Assembly (NCBI GenBank): GCA_025839675.1
Contig: CP104013.1
Coordinates: forward strand, 3,270,001-3,302,000
Direction of reading: 5' to 3'
Source of the DNA: Candidatus Lokiarchaeum ossiferum
GTDB lineage: Archaea > Asgardarchaeota > Lokiarchaeia > Sigyniarchaeales > Promethearchaeaceae
DNA length: 32,000 nt
Positions 248-20,602 of the stretch are shown here, piece by piece. How positions within the stretch are numbered: the first letter of the stretch is position 1; each line of letters begins with the position of its first letter. The notes under the pieces are model-generated. The model was not told the DNA's origin. It worked only from the letters and a program-made list of their open reading frames with translations, and did not search any database. A program made the position numbers and the translations under genes.

Positions 248-395
248 CTATAAAAAGATCACGATTGTGACAGAATTGAGATTTGCGAGTGGTTTTTATA
301 GATCAAAAGCAGTAGTATGGATGTAACCATTTGAATACAAAAGGATGAAATGACAAAAGTGGCATTCAAACTTTAGTCCACATCTCTTTAAGACC
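248..395 (+). promoter_or_regulatory. Conserved upstream module, copy 1 (CTATAAAAAG TATA box, TCACGATTGTGA inverted repeat, second TATA-like TTTTTATAG, conserved leader) in front of giant gene 1
   Basis: About 90% identical over ~115 nt to 4158-4272 and alignable with 8151-8295. Starts 228 nt upstream of ATG 476, in the same orientation as the gene. Confidence 0.6.
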
Positions 396-475
396 TAAGG
401 ATAATTTTCAGAAAATGTATTCGAAACTGGAAACATGAAATTACTAATAACGCAAAACCAAAAAGTGAAAAAAAT

Positions 476-3400
476 ATGAAACCAAAAAAATTAATCTTCA
501 TCTTTTTTGTAGGAATCCTCATGGTCCCCATCTTCCCCCAAGCGCAACTTTCCTTCGCAAGTGCAACGGTGGGTCAAAGTAATGGAGTCTGGGAAATAAC
601 CTATAATACTGATGATAGTGCAAATGTTGGTCCACTCTATGATGCCAACGGATATACTGCAATTTCCGAGTTAGATCCTGCAAGTTCAACCAATACATGG
701 TACGATTATTCCCCATTAGAAGCAGGACATCAAGAATTAGACTTTGAATGCAATATCAAATTTGAAAATGGAGGTCGGAAACACATTTATCTGTATTTGG
801 ATAACGATCCCTCCCAATATTTCCTACTGCAATATGAAAATGGGGATGTGTTTTCATACACTACAGATAATTGGGTAAAACAAAGCCAAAATATGGATTA
901 TAGTTATAATACTTGGCTGTCGTTTCAGTTAGAACTGATTCAAACCAGCTCCACCACAAAATTATTAACCGTAACTTTAGGAACCGATTCTTTTTCGATC
1001 GAACTGGATAGTGACAGTACTGTTGACGCACTCAAAATGCGCACAATGACGGCCGGAAGTTCCGTCTTCTTTTCTGACGTCGAAGTGTCTTATTTGGAGG
1101 AATCCTGGCAAAGAATTTATCCTGCGGAAAGCTCTGCATCTGCAATACCCCTTAATGATGAAACGGACGATGGACAGCTGTATTCAGATATTTATGAATT
1201 GGAGATGGACGTGGGACTGAATACGTGGTATGAATATACCAAATCGGGAATTGAATACAATTTCTTGCATTTTGATTGCAATTTGAAATTTCTGGATGGA
1301 GGAGCTAGAAAATGGTATTTTTATTTTGATGATGGGGCTTATTTCATTATCAACTTCGAAAATCAATGGATCAGATCATATGTTTCGAATGCTGACGTGC
1401 CAAACTGGGTTTCTCAGAGGTCTTACGGCTATGGGGATTGGAATCATATCGAATTTGATATCGTTCAAAAGAATTCTGTAACGAAAGAATTAAAAATGAG
1501 CATAAATGGGCTCCCATTTACTTATCCTGTCCTTATGTCTAGTGGATTCAATGTGAAAATTGAATACTTAAGAGTGCGTCTTCAAACTAGCGGAAGTCTT
1601 TTGATTTCCGATATGGCAGTCGATAATGATCAGGATGGATTGGATGAGGTTGAGGAAGCTATGCTAGGGTCTGATCCTCTCCTTAAAGATACTGATGGCG
1701 ATTTTGCTTATGATGGGGAAGAAGCCTCTATCTATGGAACGGATCCAACGGTTCCCGATGAGGCAAATGGTTTTACACTGATCTATCCAGAAGGTGGTCC
1801 AGGCAGAGTTGATATTTCCACAGATTCATCTACCGGTTCAAAGATATATCAGCTAAATTCGGAAGGTTCATCTAATACTTGGTTTCAACATCGATTGAAT
1901 GGCCTAAGAGCTCAATCTGTCGGATTTCATTGTAAAATAAAAGTGCATGATTCTCAAGAAAAATACTTGTACTTCTATTTTGACGATGGTGATTATTTCA
2001 TAGTTCGATTTATTAATCTACATCTCTATACCACCTATATTCATAATGGGGTTGGCAACGGGTGGAGGGATCAGTATATTTATTATGGGGACCAGGATTG
2101 GTTGGATTTATCAATCACTATTACTGGAGGACCCAATATCAAAACATTAGATGGATCTTTAGATGGAAATCCCTTTGATGATTCCGAATTCATGTATTCG
2201 AAAGGTGTTTTTGACAAGCTTAAAACCCGCCAAACTGGAACGGATAATTTGTGGAGTTTCACGGAGTTTATGATTGATTCGGATTTGGATGAGTTATCTG
2301 ATGTAGAGGAACTTGATTTAGGCACCGACCCGACGGATGCGGATTCGGATGGGGATGGGTTAACCGATGGAGAAGAAGTCAATAATCATGGCACTAACCC
2401 TCTAGTGGCGGATTCGGATGGTGATAAATTTTCTGATCTCCTCGAAATTCGTGGGAAATTAAATCCTATGGATCCCAGCGATGTATTTACAGATGAATGC
2501 ACCCTTGGAGGTTATGTTCCAAGCGAATGGGTGATTCCAAGCTCAGATGTGGGCATCCAAGCAATACCAAATGATTGGGATGATACTAGTTATTTAAGCG
2601 ACAATTTTATGCTCTCTATCAGTCCCACATATCGGCACGATTCTCGCAGTATAGAAATTCCATTACAACAACTAGATGTCATGGAAAATTTTGCATTTTC
2701 ATGTTATGTTGGGCAAAATTGGTTAGGAGGTGAAGAATCATGGCAAATTTATATTAAAGATACTTCAGGAAAAGGTTTTGCTTTGAACTATAAAGGTGAT
2801 CAATTCTACATTAGTGATACTACACTTCTTTCTTTCAGCTCGGATATTATTCAAGTACCTAATCCAAATAAAATTATGCATGAAATGAGGATAACCTTAA
2901 AATTTGTTGGCGATCATACCGATATTTTCCTATATTTTGCAGATACTTCAATGGGTAACTACTCCATCGAGATGGGAAAAATGTTATCCAAAATCATTGT
3001 TACTCGAACAACGACTTTTAATACTCCTGAGATACCCTCCTTTGGATTTGATAATTTTAAAATAATCCAATGGAAATGGCCTTATTATAAATTGATGGAA
3101 ACTTATCCTTCTAATGAAGGGAGAGATGGGCATTTAACCATTAATAACGTCCAAAAAGGCGTTGGTAAAGGACCTGGGTTCTATGAAATAATGTCCTCTG
3201 TCGATTTTGATCGGAATTGGAATGATGATGGTTTGGAAGGGATGCACTTGGATGGTTCTTTTTGTGATACAGGTTCCTTCAATTTTGTTTCTCATGCAAA
3301 ATTATTTGATATATTCGGGACTGGAATTACCCAACCTCAATCAAGTATAACTAAAATGGAACTTGATTTAAAGATCAATGGTCCTGATGGTCCTATCGAT

Positions 3401-3961
3401 TTATCTACAGCAAATGGAATCAGTAATCTAATAGATCCATACTTAATTAACATGATTGAAAATTTGGACACTATTACAGATTTAAATGAGGTTACTGAAA
3501 TTCTTGAAGGAGTTGGGACACTCTACCAAGTAACAGAACAATTATTAGATATGTATGATACCGTACCTGAATCACTTCAAGATGTTTTGGGACCAATTTC
3601 CCTGGTTATGGATCTTGTGGGTTTTTATTCTGAGGAAAATACACCACATCCCGAGTGGACTTGTGATACATTAGATAATGATCCTTATACCTATCAAGTC
3701 AAATATGACTTTGATTTCGTATCTGGAGTTTCTTGGGGTAGTACAAATTTTGCTATGGGATTTAATTTAAATTTTTACGAAGTAATTGAACATCTTGAAG
3801 AAACAATGGATATTGGTGACAGATACACTTTTACGATAACTCAAAGAACATTCTTGACTGGGATTTCCTATAATTGGATCTTTGGAAGATGGGAAGAATC
3901 CACAGAAATTATGGTTGAAGATACTTTTAAATTTGAACTCACATCCACCGATTCTTTTTAG
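476..3961 (+). CDS. Giant secreted multidomain protein 1 (1161 aa): signal peptide, 4 ConA/LamG-like modules, two TSP3-like Ca-binding repeat blocks, ~290-aa C-terminal domain of unknown function
   Basis: Long uninterrupted ORF. The N-terminus MKPKKLIFIFFVGILMVPIFPQAQLSFASA looks like a signal peptide. Repeated ~170-190 aa beta-rich modules share NTW[YF]...F.C.[IL]KF..GG.[RK]K..Y.YFDDG.YF and end in D[ND][FIV]x[IV]. DxDxDG motifs are present (DNDQDGLDEVEE, DTDGDFAYDGEE, DADSDGDGLTDGEE, DSDGDKFSDLLE). Confidence 0.9.
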   Translation: MKPKKLIFIFFVGILMVPIFPQAQLSFASATVGQSNGVWEITYNTDDSANVGPLYDANGYTAISELDPASSTNTWYDYSPLEAGHQELDFECNIKFENGGRKHIYLYLDNDPSQYFLLQYENGDVFSYTTDNWVKQSQNMDYSYNTWLSFQLELIQTSSTTKLLTVTLGTDSFSIELDSDSTVDALKMRTMTAGSSVFFSDVEVSYLEESWQRIYPAESSASAIPLNDETDDGQLYSDIYELEMDVGLNTWYEYTKSGIEYNFLHFDCNLKFLDGGARKWYFYFDDGAYFIINFENQWIRSYVSNADVPNWVSQRSYGYGDWNHIEFDIVQKNSVTKELKMSINGLPFTYPVLMSSGFNVKIEYLRVRLQTSGSLLISDMAVDNDQDGLDEVEEAMLGSDPLLKDTDGDFAYDGEEASIYGTDPTVPDEANGFTLIYPEGGPGRVDISTDSSTGSKIYQLNSEGSSNTWFQHRLNGLRAQSVGFHCKIKVHDSQEKYLYFYFDDGDYFIVRFINLHLYTTYIHNGVGNGWRDQYIYYGDQDWLDLSITITGGPNIKTLDGSLDGNPFDDSEFMYSKGVFDKLKTRQTGTDNLWSFTEFMIDSDLDELSDVEELDLGTDPTDADSDGDGLTDGEEVNNHGTNPLVADSDGDKFSDLLEIRGKLNPMDPSDVFTDECTLGGYVPSEWVIPSSDVGIQAIPNDWDDTSYLSDNFMLSISPTYRHDSRSIEIPLQQLDVMENFAFSCYVGQNWLGGEESWQIYIKDTSGKGFALNYKGDQFYISDTTLLSFSSDIIQVPNPNKIMHEMRITLKFVGDHTDIFLYFADTSMGNYSIEMGKMLSKIIVTRTTTFNTPEIPSFGFDNFKIIQWKWPYYKLMETYPSNEGRDGHLTINNVQKGVGKGPGFYEIMSSVDFDRNWNDDGLEGMHLDGSFCDTGSFNFVSHAKLFDIFGTGITQPQSSITKMELDLKINGPDGPIDLSTANGISNLIDPYLINMIENLDTITDLNEVTEILEGVGTLYQVTEQLLDMYDTVPESLQDVLGPISLVMDLVGFYSEENTPHPEWTCDTLDNDPYTYQVKYDFDFVSGVSWGSTNFAMGFNLNFYEVIEHLEETMDIGDRYTFTITQRTFLTGISYNWIFGRWEESTEIMVEDTFKFELTSTDSF
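1628..1771 (+). repeat. TSP3-like Ca-binding repeat block 1 of giant protein 1 (within CDS)
   Basis: Translation DNDQDGLDEVEEAMLGSDPLLKDTDGDFAYDGEEASIYGTDPTVPDE shows the DxDxDGxxDxxE pattern of thrombospondin type-3 repeats. Confidence 0.7.
2276..2483 (+). repeat. TSP3-like Ca-binding repeat block 2 of giant protein 1 (within CDS)
   Basis: Translation DSDLDELSDVEELDLGTDPTDADSDGDGLTDGEEVNNHGTNPLVADSDGDKFSDLLE. Contains the GC-rich conserved DNA island at 2321-2359. Confidence 0.8.
2321..2359 (+). repeat. GC-rich conserved DNA island, copy A (GGCACCGACCCGACGGATGCGGATTCGGATGGGGATGGG)
   Basis: Differs at only ~4 positions from the identical 39-mers at 6500-6538 and 9653-9691. Uses CCG/ACG/GCG/TCG codons, which look rare elsewhere in this AT-rich window. 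Confidence 0.85.
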
Positions 3962-4010
3962 ATTTTTATTGCTTTTTTTTTCTCAGGCTATAAGTATATT
4001 TTTTTTCTCA
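3962..4010 (+). terminator. Oligo-T tracts downstream of giant gene 1 (putative archaeal terminator)
   Basis: T5, T9 and T8 runs lie directly after stop codon 3959-3961. Archaeal RNA polymerase terminates at oligo-T tracts. Confidence 0.45.
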
Positions 4011-4157
4011 TTTTTGATAATATTTTCTTGATTTAAACGGAGAAAATATGAGTTATGAAATTTTGATGAAAATCAAGAAATTCTTTTCATTATGAAAACC
4101 CGAAAAATAAGAAGAAAAACATCTTTCCGAAACATCCATTGATATCTCATCAAGCAC

Positions 4158-4300
4158 CTATAAAAAGATCACGATTGTGATAGTTGTGCAAATTGCGAGT
4201 GGTTTTTATAGATCAAAAGCAGTATTATGGATGTAACCATTTGAATACAAAAGGATAAATGGACAAAAGTGAGAAACCGATTTTTGTTCCACATCTCCTT
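4158..4300 (+). promoter_or_regulatory. Conserved upstream module, copy 2, in front of giant gene 2
   Basis: CTATAAAAAGATCACGATTGTGA...GCGAGTGGTTTTTATAGATCAAAAGCAGTATTATGGATGTAACCATTTGAATACAAAAGGAT. About 90% identical to copy 1. Starts 212 nt upstream of ATG 4370. Confidence 0.6.
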
Positions 4301-4369
4301 AATAGTAATTTTTCAATATCCTTTTTGTATTCTACTTGAACAATATTTAAAAGAAAAAAGGTAAACATA

Positions 4370-7300
4370 ATGAATCAAAAAAAAAGACTGCTATCGTTAT
4401 ATGCGTTGCTTCTTTTGACCTGTTCCGCCTTAATATATACTAATATGGGAACTGGGGTCGCAGAAATCAATATTTCAGAATGGACAAATGTGCCAAATTA
4501 TGGTCCTTCGGAATTATCCAATTTCATGGATGAAGATCGAGGGGAGGTAATGAAAATATATGATGCCGGATGGGGATTAGTCCAAAAGGATATAATTCCG
4601 CAATATATTGCAGGAAACAAAATTTGGTATTCCTATTGCGTGAAAGTAACTGGTGGGGAATCGAATGATTATGGGGGGGTGAATTTAAGCCCATCTACCA
4701 TCAACACTGGGGCCGTAGGAATGCGAATTCATGCGGGAACGAGTTTAAAATATTGGCTTGGAGATGGACAAGAGCATGATACATTCATTGACGTAGAAAC
4801 AGATCAATGGTACCACATAGGATGTTCATATGAGTCTGATGGTCAATTCGAAGCATATTTGGATGGGGAGATGATCCTTTCAGAACAAGCCAAGCCTATC
4901 AGCAATTTAAATTATGTTTATGCTGCAACATGCTCCCAATCAACTTTTCTGGATGATATCTATGTTGGAGTTTCTAAGGATGAAGCATTTAATAGTTTCC
5001 AAGATGAAGTAACTACCATACTAATTGATGATTTTTCGGAAGATTCGATTGGGTTTTTACCCTTAGATTGGGAACTAACTGCAGGCGGATATTCATCTTT
5101 TAGAACTGTAGAACTAGCCGAATCTCCATATGATCAGGTTTTAAGAATCTATGATTATGGACAAATTCCCACCGTATACTCAAAAGTGGAAAAAAAAATT
5201 CCCGCTGGTTTTGGATCTATTGAATGGGATTTAAAAACAGATTCACCAGGAAATAATAATGGTTATTTCGGATTGATGGAAGGGGATAATTGGTTGATAT
5301 CGATTGGGATAATAAATAATCAATTCAGAGTTTATTACCACAATGATCATGCTTCGTATAGTGTCTACGACACAAACGTTGTTGCTTCAAATCAATGGAC
5401 CCACCTTAAAATGGAGTATGATGGCGAGCAAGATGATTGTCGAATATTTGTTAATGGGGTTGAGGTAAGAAGTACACCATTCAATACAAAATATGCCTCT
5501 TTTGTTGATGGTCTATATTTACACTCAGGAGAAACTGGATCTGGAAAAAGTTATTATGACAACATTCAAGTGAACTGGGTAAAACAGCGTGTGGATTCTT
5601 TTATGGAATATGCTGGCATTATCAATTTTGATGATAGTTACAATCAAGATCCTCTAGCAAGCTGTCAAGAATGGTCTTCCGATGTTAATTCGGGCTATCA
5701 AATCCTAGATGCAGTGACCACACACTCAAGTGTATTGGCAATAACCGATTTAGTTTCTTCTTCGAGCTGCTTTACAAAACTAAACATTAATACTCCTTTA
5801 GGGGTTGGAGGCTGTGTAGAAGGATGGATATCTGGATCGAGTATCATAAATAATGCGTATATGGGCATTAATTTTGGGGATAATTACTGGTTATTGTCCG
5901 TGGGGATCAATAATGGTCATTTTAAAGTTTATCATCGAACGAGCTATTCAACATATAGTACCGCTGTTTCTACCATAGAAGCAAATCCAAATCAATGGTA
6001 TTTTGTTTGTTTATATTATGATGGTATGTCTGATATTTGTACTGTATCGATAAATGGTGTTACTATTGGACAATATAGTCTTTATGACGTTGCTGGAATT
6101 ACATCAATATATCTCCATTCGGGAGAAAATGGGGGGGGTACAAGTTACTATGACTCAATTTCGTATGATTGGGCAAATGAATATGATGCAGGAGATGCAA
6201 GAATAATAGACTTCGATAGGGACCATTTAAGCCACAAGTATGAAGAGACCCATATTTATGAATCTGGATTAAAAACTTCTCCTTGGAAATGTGATTCTGA
6301 TAATGATAGGGTAAATGATTGGGATGAAATCTGTGGTATCTACGGATATATTACTGATCCAACTCGGATTGACTCTGAACCGATTGGATCTGAAGATGGG
6401 CTGAATGATTATTTAGAATTATTTAGATATCATACCGATCCAACTCACTATGATTCTGACCGTGATGGGCTGACTGATGGAGATGAAGTCAACTTATATG
6501 GCACCGACCCGACCACGGCGGATTCGGATGGGGATGGGTTGACCGATGGGGAAGAAATAAATGGGTATGATATGATGTATCTAGACGAGCTTTATCATGA
6601 ACATAAATATGCAACATATTATACAAATCCGCTTCTTGTTGATTCAGATAATGATAATTGGAGTGATAAGCAAGAACTTGATTTGATACAAGCTGATTTA
6701 GATCAAATTCATGAACCTAATCCTGCGGTAGATAACTATCGGTATTTAGATCCAATGTGCCGAGATAGTGATTTAGATTTTCTTCCCGATGGATGGGAAG
6801 AATATTATGGACTCGATCCTTGTGAATATAATTCAGAGCTGGAATTAATCGAAAACAATGTTCCTGATATATATTATTTCTTTGCGCCAATTCAAGAACC
6901 AGATCAAGAACGGGTCTCGGGATTGCGAATTGCCTTGATATTCATTAATCCAGACATAGTTTCGCCAAGTTGGGCAAATTATTACTCTCGAGTCTTCGAT
7001 AAGCTAAATTATGATGTAGTGCATGTTTATACAGGTTACACCCGAAATCAGTTTTATAATGAATTGTATCAGTGGACACCCCTTATTCAAGCGGATGATG
7101 AATTATTTATAATGATCCAAGGACATGGGCTGGTGGAGGACAATGAAGAAGAAACTCCGTTGGCGTATTTCACTCTTTATGATGACGATGAGGTGTTTGA
7201 CCAGGATGTTGGTGAAATTTCGGGACAAGAGTTTTTAAATCGATTGAAGTTATTTAGTGCCTACAGGAAATGTGTGTTTTTTGATACCTGTTTCGCTGGA

Positions 7301-7618
7301 AAAGTGCTTGAAAATTTCGATTCGGAAATAACTAAAGTCTTTCAAACTACTGATGCCACCCACGCACAGTATAGAACAGTCAGCAAATTTGATAAGATTA
7401 TGCAGAATGCTAAGTGGGAGAAAAGAAATACTTATGTTGCATCATTTTTCTGGGATACTTTAGGTGCAACCACTCTAAGTGAAGATCCAATTTTCAAATA
7501 TATTCAGGCGGATTTGGCATTTGGTTCTCTTTTACCGTGGAGTCGAACGGGTTATCAAGGAGGAACTATTTTGAATCCGGGCTGGAATTATTTGGAACGT
7601 TATAATATATTTGTCTAA
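4370..7618 (+). CDS. Giant secreted multidomain protein 2 (1082 aa): signal/anchor segment, 3 LamG-like modules, long TSP3-like repeat region, C-terminal caspase-like (clan CD) peptidase domain
   Basis: Long ORF with hydrophobic N-terminus LLSLYALLLLTCSALIYTNMGTGVA. LamG-type signatures: QWYHIGCSYESDGQFEAYLDGE, NQWTHLKMEYDGEQDDCRIFVNGVEV, NQWYFVCLYYDGMSDICTVSINGV. TSP3 motifs: DSDRDGLTDGDE, DSDGDGLTDGEE, DSDNDNWSDKQE. The C-terminus carries an H-G / D-x-C-x-x-G dyad. Confidence 0.9.
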   Translation: MNQKKRLLSLYALLLLTCSALIYTNMGTGVAEINISEWTNVPNYGPSELSNFMDEDRGEVMKIYDAGWGLVQKDIIPQYIAGNKIWYSYCVKVTGGESNDYGGVNLSPSTINTGAVGMRIHAGTSLKYWLGDGQEHDTFIDVETDQWYHIGCSYESDGQFEAYLDGEMILSEQAKPISNLNYVYAATCSQSTFLDDIYVGVSKDEAFNSFQDEVTTILIDDFSEDSIGFLPLDWELTAGGYSSFRTVELAESPYDQVLRIYDYGQIPTVYSKVEKKIPAGFGSIEWDLKTDSPGNNNGYFGLMEGDNWLISIGIINNQFRVYYHNDHASYSVYDTNVVASNQWTHLKMEYDGEQDDCRIFVNGVEVRSTPFNTKYASFVDGLYLHSGETGSGKSYYDNIQVNWVKQRVDSFMEYAGIINFDDSYNQDPLASCQEWSSDVNSGYQILDAVTTHSSVLAITDLVSSSSCFTKLNINTPLGVGGCVEGWISGSSIINNAYMGINFGDNYWLLSVGINNGHFKVYHRTSYSTYSTAVSTIEANPNQWYFVCLYYDGMSDICTVSINGVTIGQYSLYDVAGITSIYLHSGENGGGTSYYDSISYDWANEYDAGDARIIDFDRDHLSHKYEETHIYESGLKTSPWKCDSDNDRVNDWDEICGIYGYITDPTRIDSEPIGSEDGLNDYLELFRYHTDPTHYDSDRDGLTDGDEVNLYGTDPTTADSDGDGLTDGEEINGYDMMYLDELYHEHKYATYYTNPLLVDSDNDNWSDKQELDLIQADLDQIHEPNPAVDNYRYLDPMCRDSDLDFLPDGWEEYYGLDPCEYNSELELIENNVPDIYYFFAPIQEPDQERVSGLRIALIFINPDIVSPSWANYYSRVFDKLNYDVVHVYTGYTRNQFYNELYQWTPLIQADDELFIMIQGHGLVEDNEEETPLAYFTLYDDDEVFDQDVGEISGQEFLNRLKLFSAYRKCVFFDTCFAGKVLENFDSEITKVFQTTDATHAQYRTVSKFDKIMQNAKWEKRNTYVASFFWDTLGATTLSEDPIFKYIQADLAFGSLLPWSRTGYQGGTILNPGWNYLERYNIFV
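6290..6833 (+). repeat. TSP3-like Ca-binding repeat region of giant protein 2 (within CDS)
   Basis: Translation CDSDNDRVNDWDE...YDSDRDGLTDGDEVNLYGTDPTTADSDGDGLTDGEE...VDSDNDNWSDKQE...RDSDLDFLPDGWEE. Confidence 0.8.
6500..6538 (+). repeat. GC-rich conserved DNA island, copy B (GGCACCGACCCGACCACGGCGGATTCGGATGGGGATGGG)
   Basis: Read directly: 39/39 identical to 9653-9691, although the flanking codons and the rest of the two genes are highly diverged. Confidence 0.9.
6911..7420 (+). other. Caspase-hemoglobinase fold (peptidase clan CD: caspase/metacaspase/legumain-like) domain at the C-terminus of giant protein 2
   Basis: The order of elements fits the fold: RIALIFINPD (beta1), then ...VHVYTGYTRNQFYNEL..., then DELFIMIQGHG (His919, codon 7124-7126), then KCVFFDTCFAGK (Cys974, codon 7289-7291). 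The His-Gly and D-x-C-x-x-G motifs are ~55 residues apart, as in clan CD cysteine peptidases. Confidence 0.6.
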
Positions 7619-7628
7619 ATTTCGGGAT

Positions 7629-7659
7629 AGTGAGTAGTTTTGCTCTCACTTTTTTTTTA
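7629..7659 (+). terminator. Hairpin (AGTGAG...CTCACT) plus T9 tract after giant gene 2
   Basis: An inverted repeat at 7629-7634 / 7645-7650 is followed by TTTTTTTTT at 7650-7659. It overlaps the 3' end (KKK codons) of the convergent gene 7646-7984. Confidence 0.4.
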
Positions 7660-7984
7660 TTTCTTCTGCATTTAATGAATCCCCAAAAATGATTTCCTTA
7701 CGCTTTCTATCAACCAACCGCAAATTTCCCGTAAATAAGGGCATATGAAGCCACGTATTTAATAATTTTTCCCCTCCCAGTACATGATCCCATGATTTTA
7801 ATATTGTTCTTTCGTTTTTCGATATTTTCGCAAGGCACGAGCTACAAAAAAAAATAGGTAATGGATATGGAATGGAATTATTGGGTCTTTTTTCGGTTAC
7901 CGTAATAAATGGGGACATATCAGCACGCCACTGTTGACATATGTAACATAAGTTTTTGGAAGGTACTTTGTTTTTGGCCATCAA
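7646..7984 (-). CDS. Hypothetical small protein with two CxxC pairs (possible zinc ribbon)
   Basis: 112-codon ORF. CYIC...(35 aa)...CSSC suggests a Zn-binding knuckle pair. The first codon is TTG followed directly by ATG. No family recognised. Confidence 0.45.
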   Translation of the reverse strand: MMAKNKVPSKNLCYICQQWRADMSPFITVTEKRPNNSIPYPLPIFFCSSCLAKISKNERTILKSWDHVLGGEKLLNTWLHMPLFTGNLRLVDRKRKEIIFGDSLNAEEIKKK

Positions 7985-8126: not shown

Positions 8127-8150
8127 GAATCGCCCTATGTTTTTGGGATG

Positions 8151-12705: not shown

Positions 12706-13244
12706 TAGTCGGGATAAACAGACTATAATTGTCACTCATGATGGAACAATTAAAAAATTTCCGATTTTCATTCCATAAAAAGTTCTCTGTTTCAATCCGA
12801 ACAGTGGTTTGACAGTTTTAGGGGATTCAATTTACATGGGTGGCATTTGCTTCGTGGGGGGGAATTGTCGAAAGTATATAAGAATCTAGGATCTAAAAAA
12901 AAAGTCGAGTTGTGCGAAAAAAACCAAGAAATCGCAATGTGAGAAGGACAATTTTTTACAACAACTGAGCAAAGAAAAACCATAGAATACTAGGAATTAT
13001 AAAATGGATTTCAGAGATTTGAGTGAAGAAGGGGTAAAGTTTTAAAAAAAATTGAAAGAAATAGTTTTTTGAAAGAAAGTGGGAAGATTCCACATAATTC
13101 TTCAAGTAATTTATTATTTACAAGCGTCTCAAGTTCTACATCGGTGGAGGATTTTAAAATCAAAGAGATTTTTTCATTTGTCATGGATCTTTTTTGATCG
13201 AATCTTTTTTAATTATTTATGACTAAATATAAATTAAGATAAAA

Positions 13245-13709
13245 ATGAAAGACAAACAAAATGTAGGAAATTCTGGAGAATATTATATTGCAGCTTTCCT
13301 TTCTGCACGAAATTTTATAGTAACCATCACCCTAGGAAGAGCTATTGGCTATGATTTATTAGCGGTCAATCCAAGCGGAAAGTTAATCAAAATATCTGTA
13401 AAAACTCGCGATTCAAACTCAACTCATAGATTTGTGTTATCAGAAAAATCTGAGTCATTAAAATCCGAGGATCTGTTCTATGCATTTGTTAGAACGAATA
13501 AATTTGAATCTCTACCCGATTTTTGGATGATTCCATCAAAAATTGTTGCTGAGCAAACATATAATAGCCATAAGAAATGGCTTCAAGAAGATAGCAATCA
13601 CAAGGATAATACAATGCGAACATTTTGGGTGAAAAATCATGATCTTTTCCCAAAGAATTGGGGAGAAACAATGGAGCAATATCATAATAGTTATTCTAGT
13701 TTGCTATAG
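13245..13709 (+). CDS. Putative PD-(D/E)xK-fold (restriction endonuclease-like / Hjc-YraN-like) nuclease, 154 aa
   Basis: The N-terminal pattern GEYYIAAFLSARNFIVTITLGRAIGYDLLAVNPSGKLIKISVKT matches the (G)E-helix, D-strand and [ESQ]xK-strand arrangement of PD-(D/E)xK nucleases. This is pattern recognition only. Confidence 0.5.
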   Translation: MKDKQNVGNSGEYYIAAFLSARNFIVTITLGRAIGYDLLAVNPSGKLIKISVKTRDSNSTHRFVLSEKSESLKSEDLFYAFVRTNKFESLPDFWMIPSKIVAEQTYNSHKKWLQEDSNHKDNTMRTFWVKNHDLFPKNWGETMEQYHNSYSSLL

Positions 13710-13864
13710 TTTTTTTTTAAGAATATTATCTCAGATAATGTTTTTTCATATTGATCATTCATAGAATGCAAGAAGAAATTGGATTTTTCCAAAGATAAAG
13801 AGGTCTGGAAAAAAAGTTGGACTTCTTTTTTAGAATTTTTTCTCATTTTGAGGAAAAATTTCTT

Positions 13865-13986
13865 TCAGGGAAAATCTCAGTTCATCCTTTTGCATTCAAT
13901 ATTTGAACACTATTCATAGGGTGATATTTCTATTTAAACACCGTGGTAATAGCAAAATAATCACTCATGTGATCTTTTTATATTTA
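13865..13986 (-). promoter_or_regulatory. Conserved upstream module, copy 5 (orphan; same subtype as copy 4)
   Basis: The minus strand reads AAATATAAAAAGATCACATGAGTGATTATTTTGCTATTACCACGGTGTTTAAATAGAAAT...ATATTGAATGCAAAAGGATGAACTGA. It is collinear with copy 4 (20602-20470) and shares the TGAATGCAAAAGGATGAA core with copy 3. No giant gene follows; there is only a 51-codon ORF at 13845-13690. Confidence 0.55.
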
Positions 13987-14227
13987 TCCATTGTTTCAAA
14001 TCGAGCATATCTTCCTCGTATTTTTCAACGAGAGTCCGATATTTCTTTTGATAGATGCGTTCGGGAAGCAAGCCAACACTCCGGAACAACAACATCATAT
14101 TCAAAAATTCCAGTTTCATTTCAAACGGCCAACTATCGATGGGGTCATCCTTATAAACGGAGACTCGAGAGATCCCCGCCGATCCCAAGTTGATTTCAAA
14201 ATGGCACTTTTTATGCGGTTTGTTCAC
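13961..14227 (-). CDS. Hypothetical protein (88 aa), possibly a gene fragment
   Basis: ORF with a GTG start. The composition looks protein-like (…SAGISRVSVYKDDPIDSWPFEMKLEFLNMMLLFRSVGLLPERIYQKKYRTLVEKYEEDMLDLKQWI) but I recognise no family. Other frames here hold competing ORFs. Confidence 0.3.
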   Translation of the reverse strand: MNKPHKKCHFEINLGSAGISRVSVYKDDPIDSWPFEMKLEFLNMMLLFRSVGLLPERIYQKKYRTLVEKYEEDMLDLKQWINIKRSHE

Positions 14228-14609
14228 TTTTTTCCCTCTTGCCCATCCAAAATGTTCTTATAGTATTTATTAGATCCCCACCTTTTAAAATAGATTTTGA
14301 AAAGAAAATAAGGAAAAAAAAATCCAGCAAAAAGATAGAAAGATATAAATAAATTATCGGTAACTTGCTACGGTAGTATAAACATAGTGAAATGTTGCCC
14401 CAGCATTGATACATTTGGGGTAGATTTCTTTAGGAATTGTATTAATCGAAGATATTATTTCCGTTAACGCTAAAACGAAACTTTTATACCGTCAAACTCC
14501 CGTATGAGAGTAAAAGTGCAGCCAAACCAGATAGGAATAAAATGGAGTTGAATGATGTAATAAAAAAAAATTTGTAATAAAAGGGGTTTTGGGAAATTGA
14601 AAGGGAGTT

Positions 14610-14882
14610 TTATTTCTTCATTTTATTCCCAGAGGGTTTGTTGTTCTTTAAACGACGATTCTCAATAGAATTTGCTTGAGCTCGAGTTTTTGTAGTCTTC
14701 ACAGATACTTTTGAAAAGTGTTTACTTGGATCCTGATGATGTTCTTTGATCCTTCTGTTAAGATTATTCGTCATCCCAGTATAAGCGGTTTTTCCTGATT
14801 TAGACTTTAAATTATATACACCAGGGGATTTTGGAATTTTAGAACGACTTTTTTTTGTGTTAGAATATGTTTTCGATGTCAT
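14610..14882 (-). CDS. Small GIY-YIG nuclease-superfamily protein (90 aa)
   Basis: PGVYNLKSKSGKTAYTGMTNNLNRRIKEH matches GIY-(x9-11)-YIG followed by the conserved R...(K/E)H of GIY-YIG domains. The tails are basic. Confidence 0.7.
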   Translation of the reverse strand: MTSKTYSNTKKSRSKIPKSPGVYNLKSKSGKTAYTGMTNNLNRRIKEHHQDPSKHFSKVSVKTTKTRAQANSIENRRLKNNKPSGNKMKK

Positions 14883-15504
14883 ATTAATTATTTCCTATTT
14901 TTTTTTACATTTATTGTGAGTGTCAAGGGGCATTAGCCGATTCCTCGCCTCAAATAAAGATTCAATTTAAATTTCTGCGAGATAAGGAATGTCAAATCAC
15001 TTGTATTCATAAGATTTTTTTGCATCCTTTCTCTTCTTACGCCATGAACCATCTTTGTTTCGGGTTCGGGGTTCCATTCCACCTTTTGAAGGTACATGAG
15101 GTCCAGAACGTTTTCCAGCGCGTCTATCTACCAAATTTTAATTCACCTGAAAGTTGTGGTAACAATAAGTTGATGTATTGAAAGCTTTTCGCTGTAATCA
15201 ATCTCAAACATTATTGATGTTATTTTGTGAATATTATACTTCACCAGAGATCTAGGGGAGATGTTCCAAGTAATTTCGGTGAGGTTTCAATGTAACCGAA
15301 GTCCGAACTTCCTTGAATTGAGTTTTCCTTCCAATCTCTAAATATATTATAACGTACCTCTTTTTAAAACTAAGTAAGATTTTGTCAAATATTTTTGTCA
15401 GTTATTGTCGATTTTGAATTTAATTAAGTTCTTTCATTGTGTTCAATAGAAAAATCATAATTTATATATACATATAAAAACAATAAACACGCTAGAGTGT
15501 TTAT

Positions 15505-16299
15505 ATGAATAATATAATTCCTCAAGAACGAAATATTTTAATTGTACCAATTGGATTAGAAATAGACCGCGTAATTGCAGGATGCAAACTATATCCAATT
15601 AATGTTATATATCTCTTACATAATCCGCTTGTGGATTCAACCAAATTTGCAGTAGAACGATATTCAAGTTATTTTGCAAAAGAAGTTAAGAATAGGATAG
15701 GGAGTTCTTTCAATAAAATAGAAGAAGAAATTACAAATTTAGGTTCTTTTCATGATTCATTAACATGTTTGAACAGAATAATGAAATTGGAAGAAAAAAT
15801 AGAAAGATTGGGACATATCTACATAAATATATCGACAGCATCAAAAACCTTCGCAATGGCAGCTTATTTATTTGCAAGTAGAAAACCAGAACTTTTCACC
15901 TTATTCTATTTACAATCAAACAAATACATCCTACTAGAGCATTTTAATAAAGAAAATTCTTCTTTGGATAAACTGGAAGAAGAATTTAGAAAATCTGGTT
16001 TAACTCAAGGCGATTTTGAAGTAGAAGAAATTCCAATTTTGAAAACAGAATGGTTCAATAAAGAGGAAGCAGAAATTTTACGTATTTTCGATGGAAATAG
16101 ATCTTTTGATTCATTATTGGAGTTGATAGCTAATCTGAAACAGGAAAATAATCCAAAAAACAGAATGAAGATCAGAAGAATACTTAACAAATTTGAAGAT
16201 CTTGGAATCATTCAGATGAAAAAACGTGGAAAAAATTTAATTATAACTCCTACAAAAAAACACAGCAGTATTTCAAATATGACTGGAGTTTTTTACTAA
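15505..16299 (+). CDS. Putative transcriptional regulator: Csa3/CARF-like Rossmann N-domain (HFX_2341/DUF6293-like) plus C-terminal winged helix
   Basis: NILIVPIGLEIDRVIAG...IYINISTASKTFAMAAYLFAS resembles, from memory, the VHIVPVGFxYDRV / VNVSxxPRxxxFA motifs of that family. The C-terminus (ILRIF...SFDSLLELI...RRILNKFEDLGIIQMKKRGKNLIITPT) looks like a wHTH. An A/T-rich TATA-like stretch lies just upstream. Confidence 0.5.
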   Translation: MNNIIPQERNILIVPIGLEIDRVIAGCKLYPINVIYLLHNPLVDSTKFAVERYSSYFAKEVKNRIGSSFNKIEEEITNLGSFHDSLTCLNRIMKLEEKIERLGHIYINISTASKTFAMAAYLFASRKPELFTLFYLQSNKYILLEHFNKENSSLDKLEEEFRKSGLTQGDFEVEEIPILKTEWFNKEEAEILRIFDGNRSFDSLLELIANLKQENNPKNRMKIRRILNKFEDLGIIQMKKRGKNLIITPTKKHSSISNMTGVFY

Positions 16300-16584
16300 T
16301 CCTCACATTTTTAGATAGAAAAAAACCCCCCTTGATGTTATTTGTGCTGATGCAGTCTCAACAGCATAAGGTTTCAAAAGGTGTGCATTAGCTAGTATTA
16401 GATTTTTAATGCATTACACTCAATGAATTAGCCCATTAATCGAATCTCAAATTTCATAATTATTTTGGAGTAAAAATGCAATATCACGAGCTCGAGTAGA
16501 GATTGAGTAAAATAAATTGCCTTCCAACTGAAAATATAAAAGAATAAATTTCAAATTAAATATGTCCATTTTTTGATTGATCGT

Positions 16585-16693
16585 ATATTGAATGCCTACT
16601 CATAAAAAATAAAACCATAAATACTTCCTCAGCGAAGTAATCACATACTTTTTTGATGGAATAGATACTTAAGTATGACCCCATGGACCAATT
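16585..16693. repeat. Direct repeat, left copy (DR-L), flanking the giant gene 4 cassette
   Basis: ATATTGAATGCCTACTCATAAAAAATAAAACCATAAATACTTCC (44 nt identical), then ~85-90% identity up to ...AAGTATGAC..GACCAAT, when compared with 20717-20832. Confidence 0.85.
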
Positions 16694-16756
16694 TTCTCTC
16701 ATTTCAAATTTCGAATTAGGATCTTTGCTCCTTTAAATATTTTTCATAGATACTGG

Positions 16757-16788
16757 AAAGAAAGAAAAAAGAAAAGAAAAAAGAATAA
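16757..16788 (-). terminator. T-rich tract after giant gene 4 (minus strand CTTTCTTTTTTCTTTTCTTTTTTCTTATT)
   Basis: Oligo-T runs on the coding (minus) strand lie immediately downstream of stop codon 16789-16791. Confidence 0.45.
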
Positions 16789-19700
16789 TTAGCCTCGTAT
16801 TGTTGAAATAGTCATGAAATTTGAAGTAAATCTTCCATCTAATGGTTGGTTCGTACCATCAATGCTCATATAGAAACCTGTAGTTATTTCGAAATTAACA
16901 ATATAGGAAATTGCACTAGATTCAGAAACTAGATCAGTAAAGAAATGCTTCATTGTTATTTCTCCATTAAAATATTTCGCTGGATTCATTGTCAAATATC
17001 GTGAACCTAAATCAAAATCCCAAGAAAAATAGTTCCCTTGAATTGATTTTGTTAGAAAATTTGGTTGAAAAGCAGAAACCATCCCACCTCCAACATTTAA
17101 TGCGCCAACTAACTCGTCTAATGGCCCTAAGGGACCATCTGCTATATTACTACCGAATAGTAATAATAATTCAAAAATTGCATAGGCCTCTGTTCCGACG
17201 CTTGCATCATATTCATCACCAAGATTGATACCATCGGTCTCATAATTGATTTCAGCATCCCCTGAACTGGTCCTGGACACATCAAGGTCCAATGGATGTA
17301 CTGGAACACCATCAATAAGAATTCCCATTGATATGGTTAATCCTTGAAGATATGCCCACACATCGAAACCATTATAGTCTGGATGATTGATCTTCGTAGA
17401 TTCAACACCAGTTTGGAACCTTAAATCAACTTCTCCATTTGTAGCACTAAAATCATGAAAACCTCCATCTTCTTCAAGCAAACCCCAATCATATTGGAGA
17501 CCAAAATGACCTCCCAAATATCCAGAGCGAGGATCTGAACTGGAAAATTCGTGTTTGGGTCCAGCCGTCATATCATCATGTAAATTATAATAATTATTAT
17601 CAAGAAATTGATAGGTTGTTGGATTAGAATAGCAATTTTCATAATAATTAGAGATTTTTCCAAATTTGATGTTATCTACAAGAATATCTTGGGTTCCTTT
17701 AAAATAGAAACTTAAATAACTATACGAACTATCAGGAAGAACAGCTATCATAGGATAAGACACACGGCTTACCCCATCAATTCGAAAATCATAAGTATTG
17801 GTGTATCCATTCATTTCGACTTGAATGTTGTATAATGAATTCGGAGACAACTCTATTTGCTGAATTTTCTCACCTGTAGGAGTGAAAAAACCGATACTGT
17901 ATCCATAAAACTTTATAAATAGATTATAGTTCGTCTGAGGAATCATATTTGACCAGCCTAATTGTAACCACATTTCATCTATTCGAGTGCTTGTAAATAA
18001 ATCAAAGCTAATTACATTATTCTCAAAATTCTTTGAAGGATACACTTTTTTATTGAATCCCATAAATCCTTCAGACACATGGACCTTTAAGGCTTTTGAA
18101 GATTCTGTACCAAAGCCAACAGAATCTGCAACTACTTCAGTATATTGGTTTGAATTTTCTGAGAAACTAATTTCCCATCCATCTGGATTTGATCCGATGC
18201 TATCATATTCAAAATGTCCAATATTCCAGCTTAAATCACCTCTGTCGTACCCATTTTTAGGATCTGTTTTAAAAATTTTCACTTCTAATCCATCATTGAA
18301 CCCATCCTCATCCGAATCAGCATCCATCGGGTCGGTACCCAAGGCAATTTCTTCCCCATCTAAAAGTCCGTCATCATCCGAATCAGAATCTAAAGGATCC
18401 AATCTATTTGATGAAATAATCACATTATCTAGGTAAGTACTATATCCAGAATAACTGTTATAAGTTTCAAAAACAACACGTGAAATATAGGAAGCAGGTG
18501 AATAAAAAGCAAGATTTGAACCTATAGAGGAGGAACCTAGGAAAACCGAAAATGTATCCGTTGCAGTATCCCAACTGATTTTGAGATCTTTTTTCCATTC
18601 ATTACTCGCAATATTTTCCAACAAATGCCAAGAAGATCCGTCGTGATACTGCAGCCCATTATGGCCTCCATAACTTACAATTGCCATTAGAATTGCATTT
18701 GAACTACCTTGCCGTAAGAGTATATAAGTTATTTTCGCAGTATCAGTGGACATAATATCAAAAATCATTGATCCTTTTGTAGTATATTCAAAATTTTCAT
18801 AAATACCTGCAGAACCTGTTCCATGATCATACAATATAGCAGTATCATCATTCGGCCATGCTCCTGATCCAACGATGCATCCAGACCCTTGAATTTTCGT
18901 CCATCCTCCAAAAGGATTTTCATTCGCAGGGAATTCCCAAGAATTTAACTCGCGATTTCCATTTATATATGAAAATTCCACACAATCGCTTAATCCATCG
19001 TTGTCAGAATCAGAATTTGTTGGATCAGTATGTTCTCTAATTATAACATCGTCCACGTAGGCAGAATAACCGGTTTGGCTACTATAGGTTTGGAACTGCA
19101 TTCGAGAAATGGAGCTGACAGGATTATAGAAATCAAGGTTTTCAAATTTTTCTCCCGAATCTGGAAAATATATATTACAGGTGTCTGATAAGGTGTTCCA
19201 TGATATCTTGATAGATAACCAATCAGTATAGCTACATTCTTTCAACAAATTCCATTGGGTACCATCATGATATTGTATGCCATCTCCTTCTGCTGTACGA
19301 TAATTTGCCATTAATATCGCATTTGTGCTTCCTTGCTTCAAGAGAATATAGGTTAATTTAAAATTCGCATCAGTCCTGAATTCGAACTCCGCTGAACCAG
19401 AAATTAAGGAAGAATCAAAATTAGCATAAATTCCAGCGGTTCCCGTGCCATAATCATAAAGGCGAACGGCATTTGGATACGGCGTATTAACGCTATCTAC
19501 CACTGCACAACCGGATCCTGTAACGATGTTCCAATCCATCCCTAAGTCATCATCTACGCCATTATCTGTAAAATCCCAATCATAGAGTAAATTACTTCCT
19601 CCGATTCCACACATCTCATCAAAATCGGTCAATCCATCCCCGTCAGTATCGAAATCCTGTTCATAAAGAATTTCCATTTCCTCTTCAGAGAATGCTCTAT

Positions 19701-20388
19701 TAAACAAACCAATTTCATCAATTTTTCCATCAAACCATCGATTATCAGCTGATCGATAGGTTCCGATATTCATGCTAGTAATCGGTTCTAAAGATCCACC
19801 TGTGGAGACTTGTCCTTCCAATTGACCGTTTAAATATAATTTAAATCCATTGGTAGTATCTTTCTGATAAGTTGCCGCTAATTGATACCACTGGTTTGGA
19901 ACAATTATTGTGGTTCCTGAAGCGACTCGCGTACTTGAATCTCTAAGATATCCTTTTGCAATGGGTGTTGGACCTTTTTCGATGCATATCGAAATGGACC
20001 ACAATGGGGTTGTTTCTAATATAAAGCGCCTACCTTCTAATCCCCCTCCTCCTCCATCCCATTTAAACCATGCGGAGATTGTATATTCTGTAGAACCATC
20101 GGGAAGAGTCTTATGTGGCACCGAAACATAATCATTGGAACCATCAAAATTATAACAAGAACTTGATCTTCCCAACCGATCGGTGGCAGGGGTTGCACCA
20201 TGAAAAACACCATTAAAATCGTTTACAGGCTCATTAGCATTTCCATCCAAATCCCACCGCGCATATAGATCATCAGCATAAGATAGAAGAGCGGAACTTG
20301 GTTGTAGAAATTGTTGAATAGTTAAGGGTAAGCACAAACATATCAACAAAGTGGCAGTAATTTTTGTTTTATATTTCATTTTTCTCAT
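16789..20388 (-). CDS. Giant secreted multidomain protein 4 (~1199 aa from ATG 20388; the ORF extends to TTG 20415): signal peptide, LamG_3-type domain, 2 tandem ~190-aa modules, TSP3-like repeats, a further module, ~300-aa C-terminal domain related to that of protein 1
   Basis: Long ORF. MRKMKYKTKITATLLICLCLPLTIQQFLQPSSALLSYA looks like a signal peptide. It has a textbook LamG segment and a tandem duplication (…VRLYDYGTGTAGIYANF…YILLKQGSTNAILMA…YHDGTQWNLL… and …AILYDHGTGSAGIYENF…YILLRQGSSNAILMA…YHDGSSWHLL…). TSP3 motifs lie at 19612-19656, 18973-19032 and 18259-18405. Confidence 0.9.
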   Translation of the reverse strand: MRKMKYKTKITATLLICLCLPLTIQQFLQPSSALLSYADDLYARWDLDGNANEPVNDFNGVFHGATPATDRLGRSSSCYNFDGSNDYVSVPHKTLPDGSTEYTISAWFKWDGGGGGLEGRRFILETTPLWSISICIEKGPTPIAKGYLRDSSTRVASGTTIIVPNQWYQLAATYQKDTTNGFKLYLNGQLEGQVSTGGSLEPITSMNIGTYRSADNRWFDGKIDEIGLFNRAFSEEEMEILYEQDFDTDGDGLTDFDEMCGIGGSNLLYDWDFTDNGVDDDLGMDWNIVTGSGCAVVDSVNTPYPNAVRLYDYGTGTAGIYANFDSSLISGSAEFEFRTDANFKLTYILLKQGSTNAILMANYRTAEGDGIQYHDGTQWNLLKECSYTDWLSIKISWNTLSDTCNIYFPDSGEKFENLDFYNPVSSISRMQFQTYSSQTGYSAYVDDVIIREHTDPTNSDSDNDGLSDCVEFSYINGNRELNSWEFPANENPFGGWTKIQGSGCIVGSGAWPNDDTAILYDHGTGSAGIYENFEYTTKGSMIFDIMSTDTAKITYILLRQGSSNAILMAIVSYGGHNGLQYHDGSSWHLLENIASNEWKKDLKISWDTATDTFSVFLGSSSIGSNLAFYSPASYISRVVFETYNSYSGYSTYLDNVIISSNRLDPLDSDSDDDGLLDGEEIALGTDPMDADSDEDGFNDGLEVKIFKTDPKNGYDRGDLSWNIGHFEYDSIGSNPDGWEISFSENSNQYTEVVADSVGFGTESSKALKVHVSEGFMGFNKKVYPSKNFENNVISFDLFTSTRIDEMWLQLGWSNMIPQTNYNLFIKFYGYSIGFFTPTGEKIQQIELSPNSLYNIQVEMNGYTNTYDFRIDGVSRVSYPMIAVLPDSSYSYLSFYFKGTQDILVDNIKFGKISNYYENCYSNPTTYQFLDNNYYNLHDDMTAGPKHEFSSSDPRSGYLGGHFGLQYDWGLLEEDGGFHDFSATNGEVDLRFQTGVESTKINHPDYNGFDVWAYLQGLTISMGILIDGVPVHPLDLDVSRTSSGDAEINYETDGINLGDEYDASVGTEAYAIFELLLLFGSNIADGPLGPLDELVGALNVGGGMVSAFQPNFLTKSIQGNYFSWDFDLGSRYLTMNPAKYFNGEITMKHFFTDLVSESSAISYIVNFEITTGFYMSIDGTNQPLDGRFTSNFMTISTIRG
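18259..18405 (-). repeat. Main TSP3-like Ca-binding repeat block of giant protein 4 (within CDS)
   Basis: Translation RLDPLDSDSDDDGLLDGEEIALGTDPMDADSDEDGFNDGLEVKIFKTDP. Confidence 0.8.
18301..18339 (-). repeat. GC-rich conserved DNA island, copy D (minus strand GGTACCGACCCGATGGATGCTGATTCGGATGAGGATGGG)
   Basis: About 4-5 mismatches to copy A (2321-2359), with the same position in the TSP3 linker. Confidence 0.8.
19660..20275 (-). other. Laminin-G_3 / concanavalin A-like lectin domain at the N-terminus of giant protein 4
   Basis: LYARWDLDGNANE...FHGATPATDRLGRSSSCYNFDGSNDYVSVPH...YTISAWFKWDG...NQWYQLAATYQKDTTNGFKLYLNGQLEG...NIGTYRSADNRWFDGKIDEIGLFNRAFSEEEME carries all the classic LamG_3 landmarks (FDGxxDYVxV, W, W-x-hydrophobic-A-x-TY, LYxNG, F-x-G-x-IDE-hydrophobic-x-hydrophobic-x-NRA-hydrophobic-S). 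Confidence 0.8.
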
Positions 20389-20469
20389 TTTTGAGTTGTT
20401 TTCTATTCTTATCAAAATGTAGTCAACATATTTTTCTAAGATTCTTGCAAATTTTGAGAAAAAATATAC

Positions 20470-20602
20470 TTCTTTTAATCATGTAGGCTTCAAAAATTAG
20501 TGACTACTTTGCATTTTGGTTTTGAACATATATATTATAGAAAAAAATCTATTTAAACTCGGTGGTGTTAGCAAAACTGACACAATCATGATCTTTTTAT
20601 AG
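20470..20602 (-). promoter_or_regulatory. Conserved upstream module, copy 4 (second subtype), in front of giant gene 4
   Basis: The minus strand reads CTATAAAAAGATCATGATTGTGTCAGTTTTGCTAACACCACCGAGTTTAAATAGATTTTTTT...CAAAACCAAAATGCAAAG. The first 22 nt differ from copy 1 at one position. Starts 214 nt upstream of ATG 20388. Confidence 0.55.

Follow-up and report, generated by a model that had tools for sequence, protein, structure and literature searches.

What is a non-coding sequence of about 170 bases doing in five similar copies, four of them ahead of giant secreted-protein genes that themselves share little? The locus is a stretch of 32,000 nt from Candidatus Lokiarchaeum ossiferum B35 (GenBank assembly GCA_025839675.1, contig CP104013.1, positions 3,270,001 to 3,302,000; hereafter the window, with all coordinates counted from its first letter), for which an original prediction had proposed a repeated promoter and leader module. 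That interpretation matches the geometry of the copies, in which two TATA-like boxes on opposite strands face outward at fixed spacing. We put the probability at roughly 0.65 that the module is a back-to-back archaeal core promoter pair together with the first ~90 nt of a transcribed leader.

Five module copies ahead of diverged giant genes

An nhmmer profile built from the five copies recovers all of them in the window and nothing else above noise, leaving the remaining 11 kb without a copy. The copies, with the genes behind them, are as follows.

237-409, plus strand: module copy c1, ahead of g1 (nhmmer E=4.6e-45; pattern match 249-302)
4148-4314, plus strand: module copy c2, ahead of g2 (nhmmer E=2.5e-43; pattern match 4159-4212)
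8141-8312, plus strand: module copy c3, ahead of g3 (nhmmer E=7.3e-43; pattern match 8152-8205)
20613-20438, minus strand: module copy c4, subtype 2, ahead of g4 (nhmmer E=6.2e-28; pattern match 20548-20601)
13991-13832, minus strand: module copy c5, subtype 2, orphan (nhmmer E=1.2e-32)
476-3961, plus strand: giant gene g1 (NEF87_002777), TSP3 repeats, 100% identical to the database entry
4370-7618, plus strand: giant gene g2 (NEF87_002778), three LamG domains and TSP3 repeats
8351-11149, plus strand: giant gene g3, secreted, TSP3 repeats
16789-20388, minus strand: giant gene g4 (NEF87_002787), LamG domain and TSP3 repeats

The pattern is a fixed-spacing string of 54 nt, TATAAAAARAWCWY-N4-GTG-N7-TG-N13-GTTTWWATAGA, which matches only c1 to c5 in the window and has no match in 100 dinucleotide shuffles. 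Profile and pattern together bear out the five places originally given for the module. Four of the five copies share one orientation relative to their giant gene and lie 200-228 nt from it, also as foreseen: from the start of box 1, the first of the two A/T-rich boxes, to the ATG we measured 228 nt (g1), 212 nt (g2), 200 nt (g3) and 214 nt (g4). The fifth copy, c5, is an orphan, and tblastn with the giant proteins found no giant-gene remnant in 11150-16800.

The copies have sharp borders. Identity between c1 and c2 is 84.8% over 151 nt (88% from box 1 to box 2, rising to 96% over the 45 nt that follow), that between c1 and c3 is 78% over 197 nt, and that between c4 and c5 is 79% over a 56-nt core. 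In region-by-region global alignments of the copies against shuffled controls, the stretch from box 1 to box 2 reaches z of at least 4 in 7 of 10 copy pairs (c5-c1, c3-c4 and c3-c5 being weak), and the 45 nt past box 2 are 82-96% identical among c1-c3, with other pairs weaker. The 100 nt upstream of the module, the leader past +150 and the opening 150 nt of the coding sequence align no better than shuffled sequence, except that c1-c3 similarity extends about 65 nt further left.

The module is thus far better conserved than the genes behind it, the first 150 coding nucleotides standing at noise and the proteins sharing TSP3 and LamG pieces only. All four giant open reading frames (ORFs) encode bacterial-type TSP3 repeats, and g2 and g4 also LamG/ConA-like domains. 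The claim that the four proteins align only at the level of domain pattern is accurate, alignments being limited to TSP3 repeats, apart from g3-g4 and g2-g4, which align at 24% identity over longer stretches. On inspection of the translations, all four N-termini open with a lysine-rich segment, followed by a hydrophobic one and an A-x-A motif, a pattern that in g1 holds only from ATG 476, giving MKPKKLIFIFFVGILMVPIFPQAQLSFASA; the database start of g1 (NEF87_002777, 1146 aa, ATG 521) omits the signal peptide.

Promoter-like geometry inside the module

Motif anatomy was read from an ungapped alignment of the five copies, anchored on the fixed-spacing pattern.

248-257, minus strand: box 1 of c1, CTATAAAAAG (minus-strand reading CTTTTTATAG), proposed TATA box of a divergent promoter; equivalents at 4158-4167 (c2), 8151-8160 (c3), 20593-20602 (c4, plus-strand reading) and 13974-13983 (c5, plus-strand reading)
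258-271: palindrome ATCAC-N4-GTGAC of c1, candidate operator; equivalents at 4168-4181 (c2, perfect) and 13960-13973 (c5, perfect arms, other spacer), degenerate at 8161-8174 (c3) and 20579-20592 (c4)
292-301, plus strand: box 2 of c1, GTTTTTATAG, proposed TATA box toward the giant gene; equivalents at 4202-4211 (c2), 8195-8204 (c3), 20549-20558 minus (c4) and 13930-13939 minus (c5)
322-324, plus strand: TGT of c1, predicted initiator with start G323, found in five of five copies; equivalents at 4232-4234 (c2), 8225-8227 (c3), 20526-20528 minus (c4) and 13907-13909 minus (c5)
331-349, plus strand: conserved block TTGAATRCAAAAGGATGAA of c1, at about +9 to +27 of the predicted transcript; equivalents at 4241-4259 (c2), 8234-8252 (c3) and 13881-13899 minus (c5), eroded in c4 at 20499-20518
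323-475, plus strand: predicted g1 5' leader, 153 nt; predicted leaders of g2 at 4233-4369 (137 nt), g3 at 8226-8350 (125 nt) and g4 at 20527-20389 minus (139 nt)

The two boxes are one 10-mer, [C/G]TTT(T/A)(T/A)ATAG, placed on opposite strands with 34 nt between them and facing outward. Box 2 reads GTTTTTATAG in c1-c3 and GTTTAAATAG in c4 and c5. The predicted reverse complementarity of the boxes is confirmed in c1-c3 at the expected coordinates, where the 9-mers CTATAAAAA and TTTTTATAG are separated by a 36-nt spacer; in c4 and c5 the 9-mer of the second box is TTTAAATAG.

In the primary transcriptome of Pyrococcus furiosus, the transcription factor B recognition element (BRE) lies at -36 to -32 (RRAAA), the TATA box at -30 to -23 (WTTTAAAW) and a pyrimidine/purine step at -1/+1 (PMC6640164). 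On the gene strand, box 2 is the sole exact match to the TATA-consensus 8-mer, TTTAWATA or WTTTAAAW as taken from that study, in the 260 nt before each giant gene, and TGT is invariant in all five copies, its T/G step falling about 23-24 nt past the TATA core. Other genes of the window have TATA-like runs 30-50 nt before the ATG. As far as the letters tell, box 2 and TGT appear to agree with the P. furiosus TATA and -1/+1 positions within one base. From this TATA/TGT rule we infer starts at G323, G4233, G8226, G20527 and G13908. Box 2 would recruit TBP and TFB for the giant gene, with transcription beginning at the T/G step 23 nt on.

Directly after box 1 stands a 14-nt dyad, ATCACGATTGTGAC in c1, ATCACGATTGTGAT in c2 and ATCACATGAGTGAT in c5. 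The short inverted repeat originally described is therefore good in three of the five copies, where the arms ATCAC-N4-GTGAT/C are intact (in c5 with an altered spacer), and degenerate in c3 and c4. The palindrome adjoins box 1 on what would be its BRE side and falls at about -65 to -52 relative to the predicted start of the giant-gene transcript. A motif search with the +9 to +27 block (also written as the TTGAATGCAAAAGGATGAA block) gave four exact matches, all inside modules, and in c3 and c5 this block is an identical 19-mer whose surroundings have diverged. Palindrome and TTGAATRCAAAAGGATGAA block together are a candidate, and probable, regulator site, one that would link the four surface-protein genes in a common control.

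A smaller word is also over-represented here. The 8-mer TTGAATGC occurs 7 times against about 2 expected, a count that no shuffle reached, at sites that include 362-369 (minus), 8234-8241, 13892-13899 (minus), 16588-16595 and 20720-20727. Three modules contain it, as do the opening bases of both copies of a 98-nt direct repeat (see below), and in c1 and c3 it pairs inversely with ATTCAA about 25 nt downstream.

Transcript-like contigs begin inside the module

Exact-protein look-ups led to short public assemblies that cover parts of the locus. Three g1 contigs classed as RNA-like (L005, L006 and L007, from SRR32148621, SRR27313661 and SRR27313660) start at 343, 349 and 389, respectively, run unbroken into the coding sequence and end at 3978/3979 in a run of nine T residues; one 3' end and one 5' end are joined to Illumina adapter. 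A contig from SRR22273277 behaves as DNA, spanning 317-4222 and breaking exactly at 31-mers common to c1 and c2. A two-replicate RNA-seq study of L. ossiferum culture exists (PMC11216029), and we infer that the RNA-like runs belong to it.

3973-3981, plus strand: T9 run, 3' end of the g1 transcript, 17 nt past the stop codon, in three contigs from three samples

To calibrate such contig ends we used another gene, where SRR3214862x contigs end at 21903, 21891, 21882 and 21849 and the TATA-predicted start lies at about 21901-21904; contig ends thus fall 0-50 nt short of predicted starts, without overshoot. The data support a g1 mRNA leader of at least 127-133 nt that begins inside the module. 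Leaders of about 150 nt had been foreseen; those predicted here measure 125-153 nt, and the RNA-like contigs back this for g1. Since the g1 transcript ends at the T9 run, g1 is transcribed as a unit separate from g2. For g2, g3 and a 51-aa ORF after c5, exact look-ups returned no contigs.

RNA-like contigs of a neighbouring GIY-YIG gene (90 aa; contigs 14247-15261, minus strand) have their 5' ends some 370-380 nt ahead of the ATG at 14882. They end at 14247-14314, so there is no read-through to the orphan c5, and their far-upstream starts suggest that long leaders or unannotated small genes may be common here.

The outward side

1-222, minus strand: div1, divergent gene cut at the window edge, the sole open frame across 1-222
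8055-8126, minus strand: relic of the div1 5' end beside c3, MPLPSEVPFDLEN..., 23 codons and then a stop
7646-7981, minus strand: 111-aa CxxC ORF, probably fed by the c3 outward promoter

The div1 ATG at 222 has box 1 of c1 25 nt upstream. A word-indexed protein search with the 74-aa div1 fragment gave no matches; an exhaustive protein search found homologues of about 245 aa, 57% identical, with residues 6-74 aligned to residues 6-74. This shared register at the N-terminus validates the start codon of div1 and shows that div1 is a genuine gene. The homologues carry weak PIN-domain signals in their C-terminal half. The nearest relative recovered, a 71-kb contig, encodes a 57%-identical div1 homologue and has neither the module nor an adjacent giant gene. 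Beside c3, 182-239 and 8086-8143 are 74% identical.

Box 1 would fire outward. In c1 the geometry predicts an outward start at 227, which would give the PIN-like gene an almost leaderless mRNA, and in c3 box 1 would yield a long-leadered mRNA for the 111-aa CxxC protein; in c2, c4 and c5 it would probably give rise to short or non-coding transcripts only. A contig from SRR32148623 (L011), spanning 6509-8103, ends about 27 nt before it would reach the predicted c3 outward start at ~8130. No RNA-like contig spans the boxes: those of g1 start at 343, 349 and 389, where 323 is predicted, and this one stops at 8103. The suggestion of a bidirectional promoter is supported for c1 and c3, by the div1 ATG so close to box 1 in the one and by a contig end near the outward start in the other.

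Selection and copying

The original prediction left a choice between selection and concerted evolution, and both have left traces, the one as motif-shaped conservation and the other as tract-shaped identity. What survives between the subtypes, c1-c3 on one side and c4 and c5 on the other, is limited to the boxes, the palindrome arms, TGT and AATRCAAA. Functional constraint is argued for by this motif-shaped conservation, by the c5 arms around a new spacer and by the 19-mer common to c3 and c5. As for copying, c1 and c2 are identical at 61 of 62 positions over 285-346, a tract that takes in sites at which c4 and c5 vary freely, and g2 and g3 share a 40-nt tract identical at 40 of 40 positions (6499-6538 and 9652-9691), which encodes GTDPTTADSDGDG within unrelated flanks and suggests micro gene conversion between giant genes. 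The c1-c2 tract, the div1 relic at c3 and the g2-g3 tract together argue for ectopic exchange within the cluster.

We therefore propose that ectopic copying or gene conversion may have spread the module within the cluster, and that purifying selection would hold its discrete motifs. With the div1 relic (74%) as a neutral control for the module (~84%), mismatches number 15/58 against 16/102, a difference that is not significant (p~0.1, our own estimate). Protein-database searches found no close homologues of g1 and g2, which makes it likely that the module is lineage-specific.

Structure and distribution searches

A structured 5' leader, as had been suggested, is not what the folding indicates. 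Against shuffles, the five leaders fold with z = 0.10, -1.10, +1.93, +0.85 and -1.10, an ordinary range; the RNAalifold consensus fold has 0 pairs, with low power at five sequences; and Rfam gives no match at the gathering threshold across the whole window and none at E<=1 for two modules. By inspection, no upstream reading frame in the module is conserved on either strand.

Among species-representative genomes, strict and relaxed two-box patterns found only one chance match, in a Ruminococcus metagenome-assembled genome. In JGI metagenomes the strict pattern found none, and the 20-mer CCATTTGAATRCAAAAGGAT found seven matches confined to the 20-mer itself. Viral contigs, phages and plasmids gave no module match. 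These negatives hold for DNA collections from which the source genome itself seems to be absent.

Weighing the readings

Several observations weigh against the promoter-pair reading. The BRE position reads GAGTG (c1, c2), GTGTG (c3), ACCGA (c4) and ACGGT (c5), G-rich and not RRAAA, a Thermococcales consensus that may not be that of Lokiarchaea; other promoters in the window appear A-rich at this position. The classing of the three runs as RNA-like rests on a library type that is itself deduced, the g1 contig nearest the predicted start begins 20 nt downstream of 323, and RNA-like contigs support none of g2, g3, g4 or c5. The palindromes of c3 and c4 are degenerate, and box 1 persists in c2, c4 and c5 although no divergent gene is evident there. 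Finally, c5 keeps every motif without a gene to drive, so the conservation cannot come solely from selection for giant-gene expression, and this copy is either recently orphaned or has a use of its own.

Could the copies be a passive relic of tandem duplication of a unit comprising div1, promoter and giant gene, with ordinary promoters, no shared regulator and gene conversion alone at work? The div1 5'-end relic at c3, the near-identical 62-nt c1-c2 tract, the status of g3-g4 and g2-g4 as distant paralogues at 24% identity and the persistence of orphan c5 all fit such a history, but the mosaic of conservation between subtypes is motif-shaped rather than tract-shaped, c5 kept its palindrome arms while the spacer changed, and an exact 19-mer is common to c3 and c5 across subtypes; we regard this account as unlikely. 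A separate gene for a small non-coding RNA, with box 2 as its promoter and the giant genes using proximal promoters of their own, is a reading that we find very unlikely: the g1 contigs run unbroken from 343 through the coding sequence to the terminator, no proximal TATA consensus precedes any giant gene, and the folding is no better than that of shuffles, with 0 consensus pairs and no Rfam match at E<=1. What speaks for an RNA gene is that c5 keeps a perfect TATA, TGT and +9 to +27 block without a downstream gene, that runs of T4-T6 lie 55-90 nt past the predicted start in several copies, and that conservation reaches about 90 nt into the transcribed side.

Two further accounts see in the copies DNA that moves or recombines. 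Hardly any credence can be given to a miniature inverted-repeat transposable element (MITE), or a fragment of one, that landed upstream of the genes by chance. The module is a short non-coding repeat in both orientations, and the 9-bp inverted repeat CTATAAAAA / TTTTTATAG bounds its 54-nt core, but that repeat is internal and homology is asymmetric, reaching in c1-c3 and c5 some 100 nt beyond box 2. The MITE-like termini and target-site duplications that the original prediction had named as evidence against itself are absent from the module borders (core flanks GAAA, GCAC, GATG, GAAT and TAAA on the left, ATCA, ATCA, ATCA, ATTT and AAAT on the right), four of five copies keep a fixed orientation 200-228 nt from a giant gene, and neither the window's remaining 11 kb nor the species-representative genomes, JGI metagenomes, viral contigs, phages and plasmids searched hold a copy. 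The copies might instead be recombination substrates that shuffle, invert or delete surface-protein cassettes, as in phase or antigenic variation, with promoter activity secondary. Direct (c1-c3) and inverted (c4, c5) copies do frame variable secreted-protein cassettes, the cluster shows evidence of ectopic exchange, and contigs L012 and L013 join 16584 to 20717, omitting g4 and c4; yet this junction lies in a separate 98-nt repeat, where a k=31 graph and uneven coverage could yield an artefact, the window holds no recombinase gene, and the DNA contig L010, which spans c3, has the reference arrangement there. Every giant gene, moreover, already has a complete module copy, so rearrangement would not switch expression, and we hold this account to be highly improbable.

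Neighbouring genes and repeats

Two 98-nt direct repeats, at 16585-16682 and 20717-20814 and 94% identical, bracket g4 and c4. Neither strand of the repeats folds better than shuffles, and they have no Rfam match. In L012 (SRR32148623) and L013 (SRR32148621), 16584 is joined to 20717 and the whole g4 cassette is skipped, a junction that is either a deletion variant formed via the 98-nt repeats or a k-mer assembly artefact.

The cluster also includes an HFX_2341-like protein (15505-16299), whose C-terminal secondary structure is helix-helix-helix-strand-strand, winged-helix-like, and which matches the Fur DNA-binding domain marginally (E=0.12). It may be a local regulator, but its structure model, with a predicted local distance difference test score (pLDDT) of 47.6, is too poor to build on. 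Genes for a PD-(D/E)XK-like nuclease (13245-13709) and for the small GIY-YIG nuclease (14610-14882) flank c5. The ~2 kb after g3 (11150-13245) hold no credible ORF and no giant-gene remnant, and gene calling on a DNA contig finds there one 54-aa ORF only. Between the g1 terminator and c2, a stretch of about 90 nt (3975-4062) is 79% identical to positions 1979-2068 of L024, a 71-kb contig of a related Lokiarchaeon, where the matched stretch is intergenic and lies between other neighbours; a conserved small RNA, a promoter and a repeat are all conceivable identities for it.

Significance and comparison with known systems

As a promoter common to a local gene cluster, the module adds one more case to an already familiar class of element rather than a new class, and does so in an organism in which such elements are undescribed; a literature search did not find these loci named. 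In cultured Asgard archaea promoters, operators and leaders are almost uncharted, and the cluster supplies five naturally occurring versions of a single promoter whose elements, namely two TATA boxes, an initiator, a palindrome and a downstream block, are clear enough to be tested. A review (PMC12993045) describes Shine-Dalgarno sites as rare among Lokiarchaea, and long-leadered mRNAs in a lineage reported to lack such sites would be useful for the question of translation. The giant secreted LamG/TSP3 proteins form a candidate regulon that could matter for cell-cell contact in Lokiarchaeum syntrophy. A more far-reaching proposal, speculative and decidedly unlikely, is a regulon of fast-diverging giant surface proteins acting at three levels: a shared operator for coordinated or mutually exclusive transcription, a long unstructured leader in which tiny upstream ORFs directly following an AAGGA motif tune translation, and ectopic recombination among modules and 98-nt repeats by which cassettes are added, deleted or reshuffled. 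If true, it would amount to programmed cell-surface variation in the lineage closest to eukaryotes.

Mycoplasma vsp/vlp loci place conserved promoter/5'-UTR (untranslated region) cassettes ahead of divergent surface-protein genes, and systems of this type switch by homopolymer slippage or site-specific inversion. The Lokiarchaeum cluster resembles them in its conserved 5' region before clustered, diverged surface genes and in its signs of exchange among members, and differs in that no homopolymer switch tract or recombinase was seen at the module and in its Asgard host with TBP and TFB. Some methanogen mRNAs, for example in Methanosarcina, have long 5' UTRs; like these, the leaders discussed here would be archaeal leaders of more than 100 nt, but their first ~90 nt are a common repeated sequence with no predicted structure. 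With MITEs and other short interspersed repeats the module shares its shortness, its non-coding nature, its multiple copies and its occurrence in both orientations, whereas it lacks border inverted repeats and target-site duplications, holds a gene-fixed position and is seen only in one 20-kb cluster.

The closest comparison is with archaeal core and divergent promoters, for which our reference systems were Pyrococcus furiosus (PMC6640164) and Thermococcus kodakarensis and Haloferax volcanii (bioRxiv 10.1101/2020.01.31.928960). The archaeal bidirectional promoters described so far mostly use one symmetric TATA, with starts 52 bp (sometimes 36 bp) apart (PMC6640164; bioRxiv 10.1101/2020.01.31.928960). 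The module does not conform to a shared-TATA promoter of that type: it has two separate, identical TATA boxes with a 36-nt spacer, and its predicted starts, at 227 and 323, would lie about 96 bp apart. What it has in common with archaeal core and divergent promoters is TTTWWATA about 23 nt before a pyrimidine/purine step and the expectation of two-way transcription from a short intergenic region; what sets it apart is a BRE position that is not A-rich and a unit that is repeated five times.

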